A stretch of DNA of 63,992 nucleotides, counting the filler, from Collodictyon triciliatum (lineage: Eukaryota): the NCBI GenBank assembly GCA_043381765.1. It is 15 parts of 15 records of this genome, joined end to end, with 100 filler letters (N's around TTAATTAATTAA, not from the genome) between each part and the next. Parts side by side here need not be neighbours in the genome. Positions count along the whole stretch, not along the records: positions 26,564 to 30,887 come from JBHJMP010006233.1; 14 more parts are not named here. One strand, written 5' to 3'. A model generated the notes under the pieces. That model ran no database searches. It was not told the origin of the DNA and was given only the letters and a program-made list of their open reading frames with translations. Position numbers and translations under genes: made by a program. Each line of letters begins with the position of its first letter. Position 1 is the first letter of the stretch. Positions 26,564 through 34,177 of this stretch are shown here, piece by piece.

Positions 26564-29500
26564 GACATTTCTGATTTGGATGTTTCCACCTTGCAGCTTT
26601 CTTGGGCCGATAATCTGGATTGTCTTTGCATCTTGGATTCTGTTGGTGTCAATCATGTTCATCGCGTCACTTAATCTGTTGAATACTGCGATGACTTGGT
26701 CTGGATTTTCTTTCTTGACGAGGTATTTTCCTTGGGTGTAGGTCACTTCTGCTTTTTGCAGACTGTGTGTTTGGTTTCCTGAGGCTACATCCCAAATACG
26801 TATTGTATTATCATTGCTTCCAGAAGCCAGCCACTTTTCACCATTCGGTCCTTGAACACTGCAAACACTAAAGACATCATTTGTATGACCTTCTAATACT
26901 TTGATTTGGTTTCCTGTGGCTACATCCCAAATAATTATTGTTCTATCCCTACTTCCAGAAGCCAGCCAATTTTCATCATTCGGTCCTTGAACACTGCAAA
27001 CACTCACGACAGCACTTGTATGTCCTAGAGTTTTGATTTGGCTTCCTTTGGCTATATCCCAAATACGTATTGTATTATCCATACTTCCAGAAGCCAGCCA
27101 GTTTTGACCATTCGGTCCTTGGATACTGCAAACACTCATGACAGCATTTGTATGACCTTCTAATTCTTTGATTTGGTTTCCTGTGGCTACATCCCAAATA
27201 ATTATTGTTCTATCACCACTTCCAGAAGCCAGCCATTTTTCACCATTCGGTCCTTGAATGCTGCAAACACTCATGACAGCACTTGTGTGTCCATATAATA
27301 TTTTTATTTGGTTTCCTGTGGCTATATCCCAAATACGTATTGTTTTATCATCACTTCCAGAAGCCAGCCAACTTTCAACATTCGGTCCTTGAATACTGCA
27401 AACACTATTGACAGTATGTGTATGTCCTTCCAATTTTTTGATTTGGTTTCCTGTGGTTACATCCCAAATACGTATTGTTTCATCACGACTTCCAGAAGCC
27501 AGCCAATTTTCACCATTCGGTCCTTGAATACTGCAAACACTCATGACAGAACTTGTATGACCTTTTAATTCTTTGATTTGGTTTCCTGTGGCTACATCCC
27601 AAATGCGTATTGTGTTATCTTTACTTCCAGAAGCCAGCCAACTTTCAACATTCGGTCCTTGAATACTGCAAACACTATTGACAGTATGTGTATGTCCTTC
27701 TAATGTTTTGATTTGGTTTCCTGTCGCTACATCCCAAATACGTATTGGTTCATCAGCACTTCCAGAAGCCAACCACTTTTCACCATTCGGTCCTTGAATA
27801 GTGCAAACACTCATGACACCTTCTGTATGTCCTTCTAATGTTTTGATTTGGTTTCCTGTGGTTACATCCCAAATACGTATTGTATTATCACTACTCCCTG
27901 AAGCCAGCCAATTTTCACCTTTCGGTCCTTGAATACTGCAAACACTATTGACAGTATGTGTATGACCTTCCAATTTTTTGATTTGGTTTCCTGTGGCCAT
28001 ATCCCAAATACGTACTGTGTTATCATAACTCCCAGAAGCCAGCCACTTTTCACCATTCGGTCCTTGAATGCTGCAAACACTAGTGACAGCATTTGTATGA
28101 CCTTCTAATTCTTTGATTTGGTTTCCTGTGGCTATATCCCAAATACGTATTGTTTTATCTTGACTTCCAGAAACCAGCCAATTTTCACCATTCGGTCCTT
28201 TAATACTGCAAACACTCATGACTTCTCCTATATGACCTTCTAATTTTTTGATTTGATTTCCTGTGACTGCATCCCAAATACGTATGGTGTTATCAATACT
28301 TCCAGAAGCCAGCCACTTTTCACCATTCGGTCCTTGAATACTGCAAACACTCGTGACAGTATCTGTATGTCCACGTAATGTTTTGATTTGGTTTCCTGTG
28401 GAAACATCCCAAATACATATTGTTTTATCAACACTTCCAGATGCCAGCCATATTTCACCATTCGGTCCTTGAATAGAGCAAACACTAAAGACCCAATTTG
28501 TATGACCTTCCAGTTTGTCATGAAGAATTGCTAATTTCACATTATTCATATGCGCATTATCAAAAACACAATCACCAAGCATCGAATTTGTGAAATCGAC
28601 ACCATCCAAGTTGGCACCAGCAAACATTGCACCATCAACGATTGAGTTACTGAGATTTGCATGCGGAATTTTGATGTTTGATAAATCCATCCCACCGAAT
28701 GAAATATTCATGAAATTCAAAAGTGTGATTGCATCAGATGCAGCCTTTGATTTGCCTTCATCAGTTTTTGACATGTAGACAATTCTGAATAACGATGCGA
28801 TGATTTGCTCACGATTCCATTTCTCATCCAGTTTTGCATCATCAACAGTTTCACTGATAAATTCCTTGACTCTCGTAAACTCGACAGGCTCTTTGTTGAC
28901 TCCGGTTTCCTTCGAATGGACGGACAAGTATTCGCACGAGTTTAATGTTCTGGGGTGAATCCATCCGAGTTTATCTGCAAATATATCTCTCATCTCAGCC
29001 CAGAATGCCACTGCCTTGTTATGCTGCTTGTTCTCTTTGCAGTGTTGGTGTGCATTCTCACAAGCCACCCAGCAGTCCCAATTTTCGTAGGAGAGCTTTT
29101 CACCATGTCTGACAGCAGCTGTTTTGTAAAGCTGAATGACGGCTTCATGCTCTTTCTTGTCTACCATAAGTTCCGCAATCCTTGTACATTGCGGACCATC
29201 TTTCAGTGACATGATTGTGCTTGTCTCCTTTCTGATAGCATCTGCCTTCTGGAAGTACTCAACAACTTGGTCCAATCTAAATACATGTATATTAGTTATT
29301 ATTCAATATATTTTTTCATAGCTATTAATAAAATATTCGATTTTTTAACAAATAGAGAAATTAACCTTTTAAGCTCAAAGTTTGTTCGGCCAACATTCTC
29401 CAGGGAAGTCGCATAATATACATGTTTTTCGCCTAGTGTTCTCATGCGAATATCCAGCGTCTTTGTATACGCCTCCAGAGCACCCTTGAGGCTAGGATAA

Positions 29501-30887
29501 TGTGAGTAAATAAATTATTCTTTTCAATTAAATATGTAATAATAATTAATAAAGAGATACTCCTTCAAATCATGGCTGATGTCTCCAATCATCTCATAGC
29601 AGGCCACGACGTTCGGATGATTTTCACCCAGGGCAGACATGAAAATATCCAGCGATTGCTTTAATGAGGATAAGGCTTTAATTTTCCTATAAAAGATAAT
29701 AGTTTTGATATTTATATAATTGATTATATTATGCATAAAATTAACCCCAAATAGGATGTAAATGAAAGATATGAAGCCAAACTCATTTTGCTAAAATTGA
29801 AAGAAATAGATAATTATTATTGTTTTATGAAAATATCTGTAATTTAAAAATCCAAACTTTCCATTGGCAAGATGAACGTTCGCAATAAACTGGATTGTCG
29901 AGGCAACAGATGCATGCTTAGCTCCCAGCGATTTTTCAAGGATTGATTTTGCCTTCTCGAAGTTTTCAATAGATTCTTCATACCTTGATGATTCAATCAT
30001 ATTAATATATCTCAAATTATAAGTGTATTTAAAACTGTCTTTAATGAATGAATGTGCTACTTTTTCCCAGCCAGGGAGACATGGCCGTAGTTCTGGTACG
30101 ATGTTGCGACAAGAGGATGCTCGTTTCCGACTTTCTTTTGGCGAATTTCCATGGCTTTTTCATATTCAACCAGAGCCTGCACATTCCTATCATAAAAAAT
30201 TGATCAGTATAAATATATTTTTACAAAATAAAAGGGTAGAATATTAACGTCTATAAATGATCAATTATTACTTTGACTGCTTCACATAGATGTCTCCGAA
30301 GCAGTCATACGACTGGGCCACTTGCAAGTCGTTCTCGCCCAGTTGTTTGATTCTCAACTCCAGGGACATCTTGTATTCATCAAGAGCTTCATCAATTCTG
30401 TTTAATAAGCAAATCAGAATAATTCCTTTTTGAAACATTATTTTATAATTTATTTTACAGTTGAAACCGAGCCTTACTTGTCTTGTTGCTGATAGATGAT
30501 TCCCATTTCTTCGTGAATGGTGGCGATACGCAGGGAATCATCTGTATTTTTCTCAACTGAATCGAGGCATCTCTTGTAGTAGACCATGGACTCAGCCCAG
30601 CTTTTTAATTTTTATTTTAGAAAAGTTGGCATTATAAACATCATTTCATGTATTAATTTTAATCATTAATGTTTTTTTGTTTTACTTTTGAAGGTTCTTG
30701 TAGACACGACCAAGATTCAGGTAATCAGCAGCCTTCGCATCTGTAAATTGATAAATTATTGAACGTATCCATATATAACTCATATTCATGACATAAATTC
30801 ATCAAAAAGACAATAAATTGCATACCTTCTGTCTGATGCTTTCCAAGACGCACATTCAGAACAGACAACAAGAACGAGTTCTCAAAA
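26564..30887 (-). CDS. TPR - pentapeptide - 13x WD40 protein (NWD/NLR-type sensor tail), truncated at both ends
   Basis: TPR exons 30887-30826, 30741-30686, 30600-30478, 30397-30272, 30186-30061, 29983-29858, 29686-29561 and 29491-29366 splice in frame (AAA AG|A TTG GAC, intron 29365-29277) into a 2.7-kb exon. That exon encodes SKAASDAITLL, pentapeptide repeats and 13 WD40 repeats of 45 aa. Confidence 0.85.
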
Positions 30888-31286
30888 NNNNNNNNNNNNN
30901 NNNNNNNNNNNNNNNNNNNNNNNNNNNNNNNTTAATTAATTAANNNNNNNNNNNNNNNNNNNNNNNNNNNNNNNNNNNNNNNNNNNNATGCAAGATAAAA
31001 TGCAAGATAAAATGCAAGATAAAATGCAAGATAAAATGCAAGATAAAATGCAAGATAAAATGCAAGATAAAATGCAAGATAAAATGCTAGATAAAATGCT
31101 AGATAAAATGCAAGATAAAATGCAAGATAAAAAAGCATTGGAAATCTCTTGAAAAATCAACATCTAAAACTCAATATGATCCTTGTGTGTATCATCAAGG
31201 CAATGTTTATTCTCCATGGTTTAGTCAACCCTAGATATGTGACATCATAGCAAAATCCTTACAAACATCTTACTCGAAACAAAAAG

Positions 31287-34177
31287 ATTGACAAGAAGCG
31301 CATCCGTGAACATGAACTTGCCTCCCGAATCAGAGCTGAAGTCTCTCTCCACTCGCAACTGCAGCACCACAACATCGTGAAACTCTATTCTTTCTTTGAA
31401 GATGCTGATGCAGTTTATCTTGTCCTGGAATTCTGCCCCAACGGAAGTCTGCATCGCTTTCTAAAAACACATGGATCTATTCCCCTCCCGCGCTGTCGCG
31501 AGTGGATTATCCAACTTGTCCATGGTATCCGTCATCTCCATCAAAACTCTATTCTACACCGGGATTTGAAACTCTCCAATCTATTGCTGGACCAAGATTA
31601 CTCATTGGTTCGTATCGTTATCTACCATTCTCTCACATCTTACTTCGATTCTATTTTTTTTGTTTATTGGCAATTACTCCTCACTCACTTGATTAGTTAC
31701 TAATCTTAAGAAAGAGCACCGACTACACTGTTAATAAATAATTATAAGCTTATTTTTTTTGGAGAGATACATTTGATGAATATGCGTCTACCTTTACAGA
31801 AAATCGCTGATTTCGGAATGGCCGCTGTGTGGGACCAAGGCGAAGAAAGGACCACAATTTGTGGAACCCCAAACTTCATCGCACCGTAAGAAAGTCATAG
31901 TAGAATGATTTACTATAGAGGGGTTTTTGTGTCCCAGTTATATTTTACTCATGGCCATATTGAAACCACTTATGCCCAAATCAACTGCAAAGATCAAATG
32001 TTGGACTCCAAATGTCAAATATCACAACATAACCTTGATTTCAATTCATGCGATAATATCTCAAAATGTATCTTCCGATTATTTGGATAGAATCTCAATA
32101 TCAATAACACCACACAGAGAAATAATCCAGAGGCAAAACCAAGGGCCACCTGTCGATATTTGGTCATTGGGTGTGGTGATATACACGATGATTGTTGGGA
32201 GTCCTCCGTTTGAGGTAAATCTACCTCACTGCATTTGAAAATAAAATCTTTTATTTTAGATTTTTCTTTTGTGTGTCATTCTATTTTATCTTTACAACTT
32301 TCCATCAACGAATGCCAGCAACATTATCTGTGCATTTGAAACAAAACCATTGTGATGTTTGGAGACGAATGATGACATTGTCTACTCTACACAGTCCGAA
32401 AATATCGCAGATACCTTTGCCAAAGTAACCCAACTGCAGTACTCCATCCCACACAATGTTCCTGGCGCTGCGCGTGATTTGATAACAAAATTATTGACCT
32501 CGGTTAGTATCCACTTGAAATCCATAATCAATTTACCTATAAATGAGATGCAACAAAAAAAAAGCTGCATTATCGAGCATATCCAATCATCGTCCAAAAA
32601 AAGCAGGAAAAATGCAGCAATTTTATTCCTAGCTTCCTTTCATGAAACACAAGTATCTTACAATATAACTTTCTCCTCTACATCAATGTAGGACCCATCA
32701 GCCCGCCTCGGACTGGATGAGATTCTCAAACATCCGTTCTTGCTATCTGAAGAACCACGCCCCCAATCACCAATGTCACACCGTTCATCTGTTTCTTCTT
32801 TTTCGTCATCCAACGCAAGCTCGACTCTATCAGAGCAATCATCACTCATGCGTCGAACACCACAAAGCACTCGCGTTGGGACTCGTTCTCCTGTTGTGAA
32901 GCATCCACAAACACAACCCCGAATCATGTCCCTGACACAGCACCACAACGCCTCCGAAACATCCAGCACCTCAGCCAGTCGACCCTCCACCCCACGCATG
33001 CAAATATCTATCGATTCGGTCAACTACAATCATCATAGCCTCAGCTCGAATCCATTAACCACAACGTCCAGTTATCTATCAAACAAAGATGTGAGAAATG
33101 ACGAAAATGCACCCGAAAACCACGCTGTTCGTTTGATTGGTTCAGACTTACGCGCCCCGAAAACAGCATTCGATTCCGACCCCACGCAAACGCCGCTGTC
33201 TTTATCCATGAGCGGCTCAAGAAAAGCTCTTCGACCAGTTCTACGTTCAGATTCTCATTCGAGGACAGGACAAACAAAAACCCTCCCGAATGCCTGGAAG
33301 CCGAGCCCGCTTCCATCAACCCTTCGGCTGCAACCAATAGTTCATCGAAACAAGAATGGGTATATTTCAATCGGCTCAGATGGTCATGTGCGACTCGTAT
33401 TCGAGACACTGGCAAATGCAATTGTTGTCTCTGGTAATGGCCAGAAGATTTCCATAGGAAAGCATATCAGTGCAGACTCTTTTCAAGCTAAGGAGGAATA
33501 CTTTGTTGACGAACTTCCTGAAAAATACCACAAAAAGTACCTGTATATTGCAAACTTTGTTGATTTAGTCCGATCTAAAACACCCAAGGTGATTATTTCG
33601 ACCTTCATTAGCGAAGTCCTATTTTCGCCAAATCACGCATCGTTGCTGTACATAGTTATTTGTTATCCTGTATTAATTTGGCCCCAATTTTTTTTTTATG
33701 TTTACTTGGTATCGCACCGTTCTCGAGATAGCATTACTAATCACTTATTCGCCCTAATAATCCACCACCATTTAGGTCACGCTTTATGCTAACGAGTCTC
33801 GATTCATGATAATGGAAAACAACGATGTGGACTGCCGATTCAAATCTGGGCATCACTACTATATTCACGAGAAAGAATCACGTGTGAGTCTCAAATTCGA
33901 TGGCGAGTTGAAGTGGACACTATCCAAAGAGGATTATGAGTCGAATGCGGCGGTGGATTCGCATCATCGTAGCTTCATCGAGTCTGGCCGCAGAAAATCA
34001 CACAGCTTAATAGAGGCAGCAGAGGACTTTTTGCCGATTGTCTGTGGATTGCCAGCGAGTGATGAAACTTTTGCAACGCAGGCAAGTATGATTGTGATGA
34101 ACACGACAGCAACAGATATGCTCGCCAGGACGTCGTTTTCCAGTGACGTGACCATGCACTCATTTCGAAAATTGTGA
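31287..34177 (+). CDS. PLK4: Polo-like kinase 4 (SAK), 5' truncated; 3' end uncertain
   Basis: Kinase exons YLVLEFCPNGSL, HRDLKLSNLLL, KIADFGMA, CGTPNFIAP and DIWSLGV. Cryptic polo-box PSTLRLQPI...LPEKYHKKYLYIANFVDLVRSKTPK|VTLY..FMIMEN. Confidence 0.9.

Follow-up and report, generated by a model that had tools for sequence, protein, structure and literature searches.

Fungal NOD-like receptors (NLRs) are characterised by WD, TPR and ANK repeats that are conserved internally and under selection at surface sites; internally conserved (HIC) repeats are defined there as those sharing at least 85% amino acid identity between units over at least 100 residues (Dyrka 2014); a later text sets this identity at 80-90%, and such repeats have also been noted in bacterial NLRs. 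The HET-E, HET-D and HNWD proteins of Podospora anserina carry, directly after a NACHT NTPase, 42-aa WD40 units that are highly alike in DNA and approximately 85% identical in protein, behind a HET or other N-terminal domain; their function in allorecognition has been shown genetically, and both exchange between paralogues and repeat-number polymorphism are documented. In HET-E the two variable pairs, codons 7, 9 and 25, 27, enclose codons 8 and 26, respectively; they are under diversifying selection and map to the propeller top, in the d-a loop and the b-c turn (Paoletti 2007). A catalogue of 305 'highly-repetitive' WD40 proteins with diverse hotspot sites comprises 50% bacterial and 36% fungal entries, and none from animals or plants (Hu 2017). 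In a further group of proteins, the NACHT family that includes TEP1, NWD1, NWD2, TTC41 and NPHP3 and ends in C-terminal WD40 or TPR repeats, the effector is the TIR-like TeTIR domain, placed immediately before the NACHT NTPase, for which NADase activity is reported in TEP1 homologues (bioRxiv 10.64898/2026.09.21.753143). Here we describe a truncated gene of Collodictyon triciliatum (contig JBHJMP010006233.1 of assembly GCA_043381765.1) that encodes TPRs, pentapeptide repeats and a hypervariable array of 13 WD40 repeats, and we compare it with these systems.

The window, by which we mean the whole 63,992-base stretch of DNA analysed, strings together 15 contig pieces, all of 4320-4331 bp except for the last, of 2057 bp, with N44-TTAATTAATTAA-N44 linkers between them; a gap of 457 N lies at 20521-20977. 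Because the window consists of joined contig pieces, pieces that are neighbours in it are not genomic neighbours, and the genomic context of the WD40 gene is limited to the 4324-bp piece at 26564-30887. Microsatellites are found at the ends of most pieces, resembling a fragmented short-read assembly. The minus strand of the piece holds a 913-codon open frame (26564-29302), and nine exons can be joined on this strand through eight modelled introns, all GT-AG and 69-171 nt long. The gene is truncated by the contig at both ends, its frame being still open at the 5' contig edge. Of this large, receptor-like gene the contig carries the rear two thirds, which encode some 1,200 C-terminal residues. 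Six exons were counted at a length of precisely 126 nt, all in phase 2 and each with a single 42-residue TPR (exon 3 is listed at 123 nt in Table 1), and the intron-less exon 9 (29276-26564, 2.7 kb) encodes a linker, the motif SKAASDAITLLNF, pentapeptides, 13 WD40 units and a tail.

A previous examination of this DNA, hereafter the sequence-only reading, had described 13 nearly identical tandem WD40 repeats with a 135-bp period. Tandem Repeats Finder recovers them as a single array at 26770-28510 (period 135, 12.9 copies, 84% matches, 0% indels, score 2397), and the 13 units of 45 aa extend from 28507 to 26756 with the loss of one codon in unit 11 as their sole indel. The Pfam WD40 family (PF00400) matches 13 stretches (E 2.9e-125), and the residues of the DHSW tetrad (H2, S23/S25, D27, W33) are complete in all 13 units. 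The description as nearly identical holds for the framework of the repeats, with 92-93% DNA identity at every lag between units once eight variable codons are left out, but not for the units as a whole, for which pairwise identity averages 85% in DNA (range 79-93%) and 0.77 in protein (0.64-0.89; 0.84 to the consensus). The rate of synonymous substitution (dS) among units is 0.19. Units 1 and 13, at the edges of the array, are the most divergent, an effect that is usual in arrays homogenised by unequal exchange. Taken together, these features support an array of young or homogenised WD40 repeats. Among solved structures the array matches the designed propeller Tako8 best (6g6m/6y7o; E 1e-65), with PkwA (5yzv; 6e-59), the Apaf-1 WD40 region (2.4e-43) and WDR5 also recovered. 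PkwA, Tako8 and the Apaf-1 sensor have units of 40-42 aa in single 7- or 8-bladed rings, whereas the window unit has 45 aa and a longer a-b loop; its 13 units may imply two rings, or help from the tail.

Sites for the analysis of selection were chosen before rates were examined, following the sequence rule of Wu 2012, by which the top-face contact positions are three: R1-2 and R1, located through the motif (V/L/I)-R1-R2-(V/L/I) with which strand a begins, and D-1, the residue preceding the Asp of the tetrad. The stretches V6-x7-S8-V9 and x26-D27 place R1-2, R1 and D-1 at codons 5, 7 and 26 of the present unit. Hypervariable codons are 4, 5, 7, 26 and 28, plus 43 and 45, with codon 4 as variable as the hotspots. 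Along units 1-13 the residues after GH-x read NW/DT/GE/NA/HT/EG/HT/SS/HT/SA/NA/SA/ND, the variable residue of V-x-S reads F,T,M,T,N,M,N,M,N,M,M,V,F and that of SGS-x-D reads V,I,Q,Y,S,A,K,R,D,G,M,R,N, and the D-x residues are K, N, E and R, so that a full repeat table reproduces all the residue lists of the sequence-only reading, together with the GPNVESWL variant that it had seen in repeats 7 and 9.

The proportion of non-synonymous differences (pN) at codons 5, 7 and 26 is 0.62, a value reached by only 2 of 14,190 codon triplets, and the corrected non-synonymous rate (dN) at these codons is 1.34 against the array dS of 0.19. The resulting ratio of 7.0, compared with 0.61 for the other 42 codons, shows that the variation is biased towards non-synonymous change at the hotspots rather than scattered, as the proposed likeness to HET-E and HNWD had led one to expect. 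When only minimal changes are counted, the synonymous rate predicts 6.35 non-synonymous changes and 21 are observed (Poisson P 3e-6), and pairwise and parsimony counts thus both indicate the diversifying selection at predicted binding-surface positions that is typical of HIC repeats. As in the Podospora HNWD proteins, pairs of variable codons (5, 7 and 26, 28) flank an invariant residue (V6 and D27) in the d-a loop and b-c turn, and there are signs of exchange between units. The predicted concentration of variation at known ligand-contact positions, in a HET-E/HNWD-like pattern, is therefore supported. The Podospora proteins are fungal and lack a TPR/pentapeptide segment, whereas the window gene, known from one contig, has 45-aa units preceded by TPRs, linker and pentapeptides, and its nearest relatives belong to Diphylleia and not to the fungi.

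A recent expansion of WD40 repeats without adaptive diversification, in which surface loops would vary because they are least constrained and the protein would serve as a housekeeping scaffold, as NPHP3, NWD1 and TEP1 do in animals, appears unlikely. Such an origin would agree with the cataloguing of highly-repetitive WD40 proteins as young duplications with diverse hotspots in bacteria, fungi and protists (Hu 2017), and with the mild constraint on non-hotspot codons (ratio 0.6). Neutral drift, however, cannot lift dN above dS, and the hotspots stand at about 7 times dS, near saturation (pN 0.62-0.74), against a synonymous difference of 17%. The pattern of exchange between units also speaks against it: units 5, 7 and 9 share the hotspot triad H-T-N but differ in the D-1 residue beside it, which fits the shuffling of half-units. 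Units 7 and 9 are identical in codons 1-25 (the first 75 nt), with all 10 differences between them falling in codons 26-45, as would be expected if conversion or recombination had broken within the unit, and in line with the conversion or block duplication suggested earlier for these two repeats.

To place the gene among its relatives, the 256 residues before the array were used as query in an exhaustive HMMER search of 1.84 billion representatives. Of the 2,510 proteins returned at E <= 0.001, only 4 reach E <= 1e-30, and the whole linker was matched in full length by only three proteins (P0015, P0014 and P0016), which, together with the weaker P0022, are transcripts of Diphylleia rotans. Two short environmental fragments are 74-75% identical, and the peculiarities of unit 1 are retained in one of them, P0017. 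When the linker was used in word-index protein searches, only weak pentapeptide-repeat matches came up and the Diphylleia relatives were missed. These four Diphylleia proteins are collinear with the window gene from the last pre-TPR helix to the tail, sharing the TPR_12 array, the helical linker (43% identity, gapless, for P0015), an SxAAxxLLNF motif, pentapeptides, 45-aa WD40 units with a 'GPNGExWLASGS' insert, and the tail; their WD units, however, are only 35-49% alike, versus 77% in the window array.

The one full-length relative, P0015 (2619 aa, EukProt EP00002_Diphylleia_rotans_P032243), has 19 WD units by repeat profile and is collinear with the gene over residues 1084-2547, the TPR exons aligning to residues 1084-1373. 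Its N-terminal half is known, whereas that of the window gene lies off the contig, and its first 1104 residues comprise a CH domain, DUF4062 (379-470) and a NACHT/nSTAND1/NPHP3_N-type region (618-845). Residues 378-461 match the solved TEP1 domain 11gz_A (E 3.7e-14), RWG loop included. On these matches DUF4062 and TeTIR appear to be the same domain, although the available portions of the TeTIR preprint do not use the Pfam name. P0015 thus resembles the TeTIR-NACHT family in having a TEP1-like TIR-like domain with RWG loop before a NACHT-like NTPase, followed by repeats. Of the C-terminal WD40 or TPR repeats that define this family, both types are present here; the family is described with either one or the other, whereas the window gene has both in one protein with a pentapeptide beta-helix between them, and the available portions of the preprint describe no family member whose repeats are internally conserved and hotspot-variable.

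The sequence-only reading had noted the motif SKAASDAITLL, which lies at ~28712-28750, and pentapeptide repeats ahead of the array, and had proposed that a tail of this type normally follows a NACHT domain. Pfam Pentapeptide does match above its cut-off (31.7 vs 20.2 bits), and the proposed association is borne out by a NACHT profile that was built from three Pfam-annotated regions and run on the 150 best relatives. A NACHT-like domain was found in 52 of the 150. The motif and pentapeptide part was matched in 91 relatives, 49 of which have a NACHT-like domain upstream; among relatives with at least 350 upstream residues the fraction is 38 of 49. The gap from NACHT to match has a median of 210 residues and reaches 531 in P0015 because the TPR array sits there. 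A TPR profile made from the window matches only three Diphylleia proteins and one unrelated TPR protein, and P0015 is the only one of the 52 NACHT-bearing relatives with TPRs between NTPase and tail.

The suggestion that TPRs sit in the place of the NTPase is not supported by this comparison, since in the collinear P0015 both the TIR-like domain and the NTPase lie upstream of the TPRs. Comparison of domain orders indicates that the TPRs were inserted into a NACHT-pentapeptide-WD40 layout that is otherwise widespread. Of the two alternatives, an NTPase lying past the end of the contig, which the sequence-only reading had offered as a dual-sensor NLR, is the better supported, by homology only; the dual-sensor part of that proposal has fared less well, as a second sensor in the TPRs is not indicated: the TPR units of the window are only 27% alike and show no hypervariable pattern. 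Scored one exon at a time, single TPR exons reach 12.4-27.4 bits against TPR_12, the kinesin-light-chain/NPHP3-type TPR family (cut-off 30.1). In P0015 and P0016 the corresponding collinear array reaches 136 bits. TPR_NPHP3 matches the TPR exons of the window weakly.

We also considered a TPR-pentapeptide-WD40 scaffold with no NTPase at all, an adaptor protein with N-terminal TPRs whose start would lie a short distance upstream of the contig. Three of the five Diphylleia relatives (P0014, P0016 and P0022) are predicted without an NTPase, and no NTPase piece is found within the window, but P0014, P0016 and P0022 may be either 5'-incomplete transcripts or NTPase-less forms, and P0016 and P0022 start inside the post-NACHT region of P0015 and look 5'-truncated. 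The frame of the window gene is open to the contig edge and its first residues align to P0015 residue 1084, in mid-protein; together with the frequency of upstream NACHT-like domains in relatives with enough upstream sequence, this makes an NTPase-less scaffold improbable.

The NACHT-pentapeptide-WD40 layout recurs in a further Diphylleia protein (P0075) and beyond Diphylleia. Proteins of this kind are numerous in the free-living diplomonad Hexamita inflata (P0037, P0051, P0054, P0080, P0105) and are found in early-diverging Mortierellomycotina fungi (P0146, P0132), where source labels read only 'WD40 repeat', 'pentapeptide repeats-containing' or 'hypothetical'. The Hexamita, Mortierellomycotina (Dissophora, Linnemannia) and metagenome proteins share the motif-pentapeptide-WD40 tail at 40-50% identity over ~90 residues, with the NACHT-like domain at the median distance given above, and differ from the window gene in having no TPR array, no family-specific linker and mostly low internal repeat identity (median 0.23). 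Internal repeat identity was measured across relatives by lag-autocorrelation, an HMM of the 45-aa unit being too specific, and reaches 0.7 or more in tandem in only 2 of 135 relatives, compared with 0.78 for the window array. In the literature we found no report on NACHT-TPR-pentapeptide-WD40 proteins, on NACHT proteins of Diphylleia or Hexamita, on the Mortierellomycotina NACHT-pentapeptide-WD40 proteins, or on hotspot-variable WD40 arrays in NLR-like genes of protists, save for the Hu 2017 catalogue, the protist entries of which were not covered.

Splicing and copy number were assessed by placing three RNA-type runs (X1, X6, X18) and a DNA run (X2) on 28400-30887 at a likeness of at least 85%. 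This placed 192 contigs of X1, 200 of X6, 31 of X18 and 25 of X2, of which 14, 12, 3 and 1, respectively, are at least 99% alike; given a likeness of 85-99%, most RNA contigs come from paralogues or relatives. RNA-type contigs skip all eight modelled introns. Six joints fall at the exact predicted boundaries with CT..AC ends (30740/30826, 30600/30686, 30186/30272, 29983/30061, 29686/29858 and 29276/29366), and two (near 30397/30478 and 29491/29561) within a few bases of them, with other letters at the joint. A 576-nt metatranscriptome contig (X18 record 11) covers 29052-29276, 29366-29487 and 29561-29685, uniting the WD exon with two TPR exons. Contigs of the DNA run X2 cross four introns and show none of the listed joints. 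Further joints (29955/30071, 28734/28829 and 30602/30851, with letters between) resemble indels or divergent exons of paralogues. The joining of TPR exons to the WD exon, on which the sequence-only reading depended, is thus supported for the transcripts of relatives of this locus. Matches listed for sequencing runs, mostly freshwater, sediment and soil metagenomes, have shares of 0.10 or less each, and runs other than the four placed here do not indicate where the organism lives.

Up to 16-17 contigs per run lie over one site of repeat 1, and 13-15 over site 29241, which indicates that the gene family is multi-copy and transcribed. The same paralogous contigs in RNA-type runs would be compatible with a partly artefactual array, in which units of several paralogues or alleles had been threaded together, as would the assembly itself, which consists of short contigs, most of the pieces terminating in microsatellites. 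Exact repetition points the same way: units 7 and 9 share 78 nt, more than any other exact repeat in the array, and repeated 31-mers cover 19% of positions. We regard an artefact of this kind as a low-probability explanation. The frame stays open through 913 codons in exact 135-nt phasing, and the assembly is plausible because no k-mer of 81 nt or longer is repeated; even in a chimera, the differences at these codons would be genuine variation within the gene family.

The gene probably encodes a large receptor of STAND (NLR-like) type in a microbial eukaryote, and the contig would hold its sensor arm. The predicted order would be an effector and a NACHT-type NTPase off the contig, then 7-8 TPRs of 42 aa, the helical linker, the pentapeptide beta-helix, 13 WD40 blades and the tail. 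The WD40 array would act as the ligand sensor, and as a young tandem array, or one continually homogenised by unequal crossing-over or conversion inside a single intron-less exon, it could be remodelled by the shuffling of blades and half-blades into new binding surfaces, with diversifying selection maintaining differences between blades at their contact residues. If the analogy with Apaf-1, fungal HNWD and other STAND proteins holds, a ligand at the propeller's top face would release the NTPase to oligomerise, and the oligomerised NTPase would switch on the N-terminal effector, which in the full-length relative P0015 would be the TEP1-type TIR-like (TeTIR) domain with its NADase fold. Ligand binding, oligomerisation, NAD+ cleavage and an immune or non-self role are thus what we infer for the receptor, with the N-terminal half of the window gene supplied by homology.

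Several observations weigh against this reading. The rest of the window contains nothing that matches P0015 residues 1-1083, the N-terminal half being off the contig, and the NACHT match of P0015 itself, at 25.3 bits, is just under the Pfam cut-off of 26.7. An NTPase is found in only two of the five Diphylleia relatives (P0015 and P0075), P0014, P0016 and P0022 beginning downstream of it, and the TeTIR-like region is present in P0015 alone among the 150 relatives. The mean amino acid identity between units, 0.77, lies below the fungal threshold of at least 85% over at least 100 residues. The hotspot and background dN/dS ratios are derived from non-independent pairwise comparisons of units from one gene on a short contig, the top-face placement of the variable codons comes from a sequence rule and from alignment to solved propellers, and codons 43 and 45, in strand d, are very variable yet are not canonical hotspots. 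The order and number of units near 7-9 could be mis-assembled, given the 78-nt exact repeat, and the RNA contigs mostly do not derive from this locus (85-99% alike).

The features of the gene are listed in Table 1. P0015 extends 72 residues past the part aligned to the window tail, and no Pfam family matches the tail of either the window gene or P0016. Rfam and tRNA scans of the contig at 26564-30887 gave no match, and PADLOC returned only a generic repeat model for the gene, uninformative on the NTPase. No relative, and therefore no extension of the contig, was found among metagenome contigs, which were scanned once with a single protein and once with an alignment. The leucine-rich repeat (LRR) sensor of NLRs in the strict sense is absent from the Pfam matches listed for the parts of the gene (the best 25 of 49 families in one listing). 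On the adjoining piece, and so not on the same contig, a short plus-strand frame at 25706-25993 encodes LRR_8 leucine-rich repeats (30.4 bits).

Table 1. Features of the TPR-pentapeptide-WD40 gene on the contig piece at 26564-30887 of the window.
Feature	Position	Strand	Evidence
Exon 1 (partial, open to contig edge), pre-TPR helical segment 'FENSFL...'	30826..30886	-	Gene model; tblastn to P0015 1084-1103; donor GT and joint 30740/30826 in X1, X6, X18
Exon 2 (55 nt), first TPR half	30686..30740	-	Gene model; 72% identity to P0015 1104-1121; joints 30740/30826 and 30600/30686 seen
Exon 3 (123 nt), one TPR	30478..30600	-	Gene model; TPR_12 weak, 12.4 bits; aligns to P0015 1119-1163
Exon 4 (126 nt, phase 2), one TPR	30272..30397	-	TPR_12 20.2 bits; joint 30186/30272 in X1, X6, X18
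Exon 5 (126 nt, phase 2), one TPR	30061..30186	-	TPR_12 26.0 bits; joint 29983/30061 in X1, X6, X18
Exon 6 (126 nt, phase 2), one TPR	29858..29983	-	TPR_12 25.8 bits; joint 29686/29858 in X6, X18
Exon 7 (126 nt, phase 2), one TPR	29561..29686	-	TPR_12 22.4 bits; X18 record 11 spans 29561-29685
Exon 8 (126 nt, phase 2), last TPR	29366..29491	-	TPR_12 27.4 bits; joint 29276/29366 to WD exon in X1 (2 contigs), X6 (1), X18 (2)
Exon 9 start, helical linker of ~175 aa, no Pfam family	28751..29276	-	43% identity, gapless, to P0015 1375-1550
Motif SKAASDAITLLNF at entry of pentapeptide beta-helix	28712..28750	-	(Nearly) invariant in alignment with four Diphylleia proteins and in fragment P0017
Pentapeptide repeats, ~11-12 pentads	28538..28717	-	Pfam Pentapeptide E 1.1e-7, 31.7 bits (cut-off 20.2); Pentapeptide_4 over residues 187-246
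13 WD40 repeats of 45 aa each (unit 11: 44 aa)	26756..28507	-	Tandem Repeats Finder, Pfam WD40, repeat table, dN/dS, PDB matches Tako8, PkwA, WDR5
Conserved tail, 64 aa, cut by contig end	26564..26755	-	31% identity to P0015 2486-2547, E 4e-10

Elsewhere in the window, a second long WD40 array is encoded on the minus strand at 44253-48573 (open reading frame 44254-47238). It consists of 19-22 classical 42-aa units (Tandem Repeats Finder period 126, 73-75% matches) and is followed by Cys-rich 'CPxGxY' repeats to the end of the piece. Its first seven units are 64% alike and most variable at positions 5, 7, 13 and 23 (R1-2, R1 and D-1 again), and the genome may hold several kinds of hotspot-variable propellers. 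Other pieces carry unrelated features. A 54-nt satellite at 22202-24167 (36.5 copies, 81% matches, GC ~51%), open in several frames on both strands, is followed at 24138-24953 by a 275-nt repeat in 3 copies. On the plus strand, a 1443-codon frame at 3-4331 runs over a whole piece that starts with (CCCAAT)x24, matches Ig_TMEM132_4th (E 1.1e-11) and has as best relatives a 1090-aa metagenome protein (28% identity) and insect TMEM132B (23%). Also on the plus strand are exons of Polo-like-kinase-4 type at 31251-33789, with a protein kinase domain and Plk4 polo box 1, and a myo-inositol-1-phosphate synthase at 53501-55033 (E 3e-108). The piece with the latter gene has a G+C content of 57% (bin 54001-56000) against 38% on the WD40 piece, which could reflect codon bias or a foreign contig.

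Likeness between repeat units whose contact residues have been driven apart has been studied in filamentous fungi and only catalogued in bacteria and protists, and the full signature is seen here at the DNA level in a eukaryote outside fungi, animals and plants. The relatives of this gene are filed as plain 'WD40 repeat' or 'pentapeptide repeat' proteins, a warning for the annotation of such families. If its N-terminal half is confirmed, the gene would link TeTIR NADase effectors, un-annotated NACHT-pentapeptide-WD40 proteins and diversification by repeat shuffling in one protist family. More tentatively, a free-living lineage near Diphylleia (CRuMs) might run an NLR-type repertoire of its own, made of multi-copy, transcribed TIR-like-NADase/NACHT receptors whose sensor arm (TPR, beta-helix and double propeller) would be diversified by blade shuffling and by selection at contact residues. 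If this is true, a mode of diversity so far demonstrated only for fungal allorecognition NLRs would be either ancient in eukaryotes or repeatedly invented, and a unicellular predator would possess a sensor for defence or cell suicide that is directed at viruses, intracellular bacteria or conspecifics.

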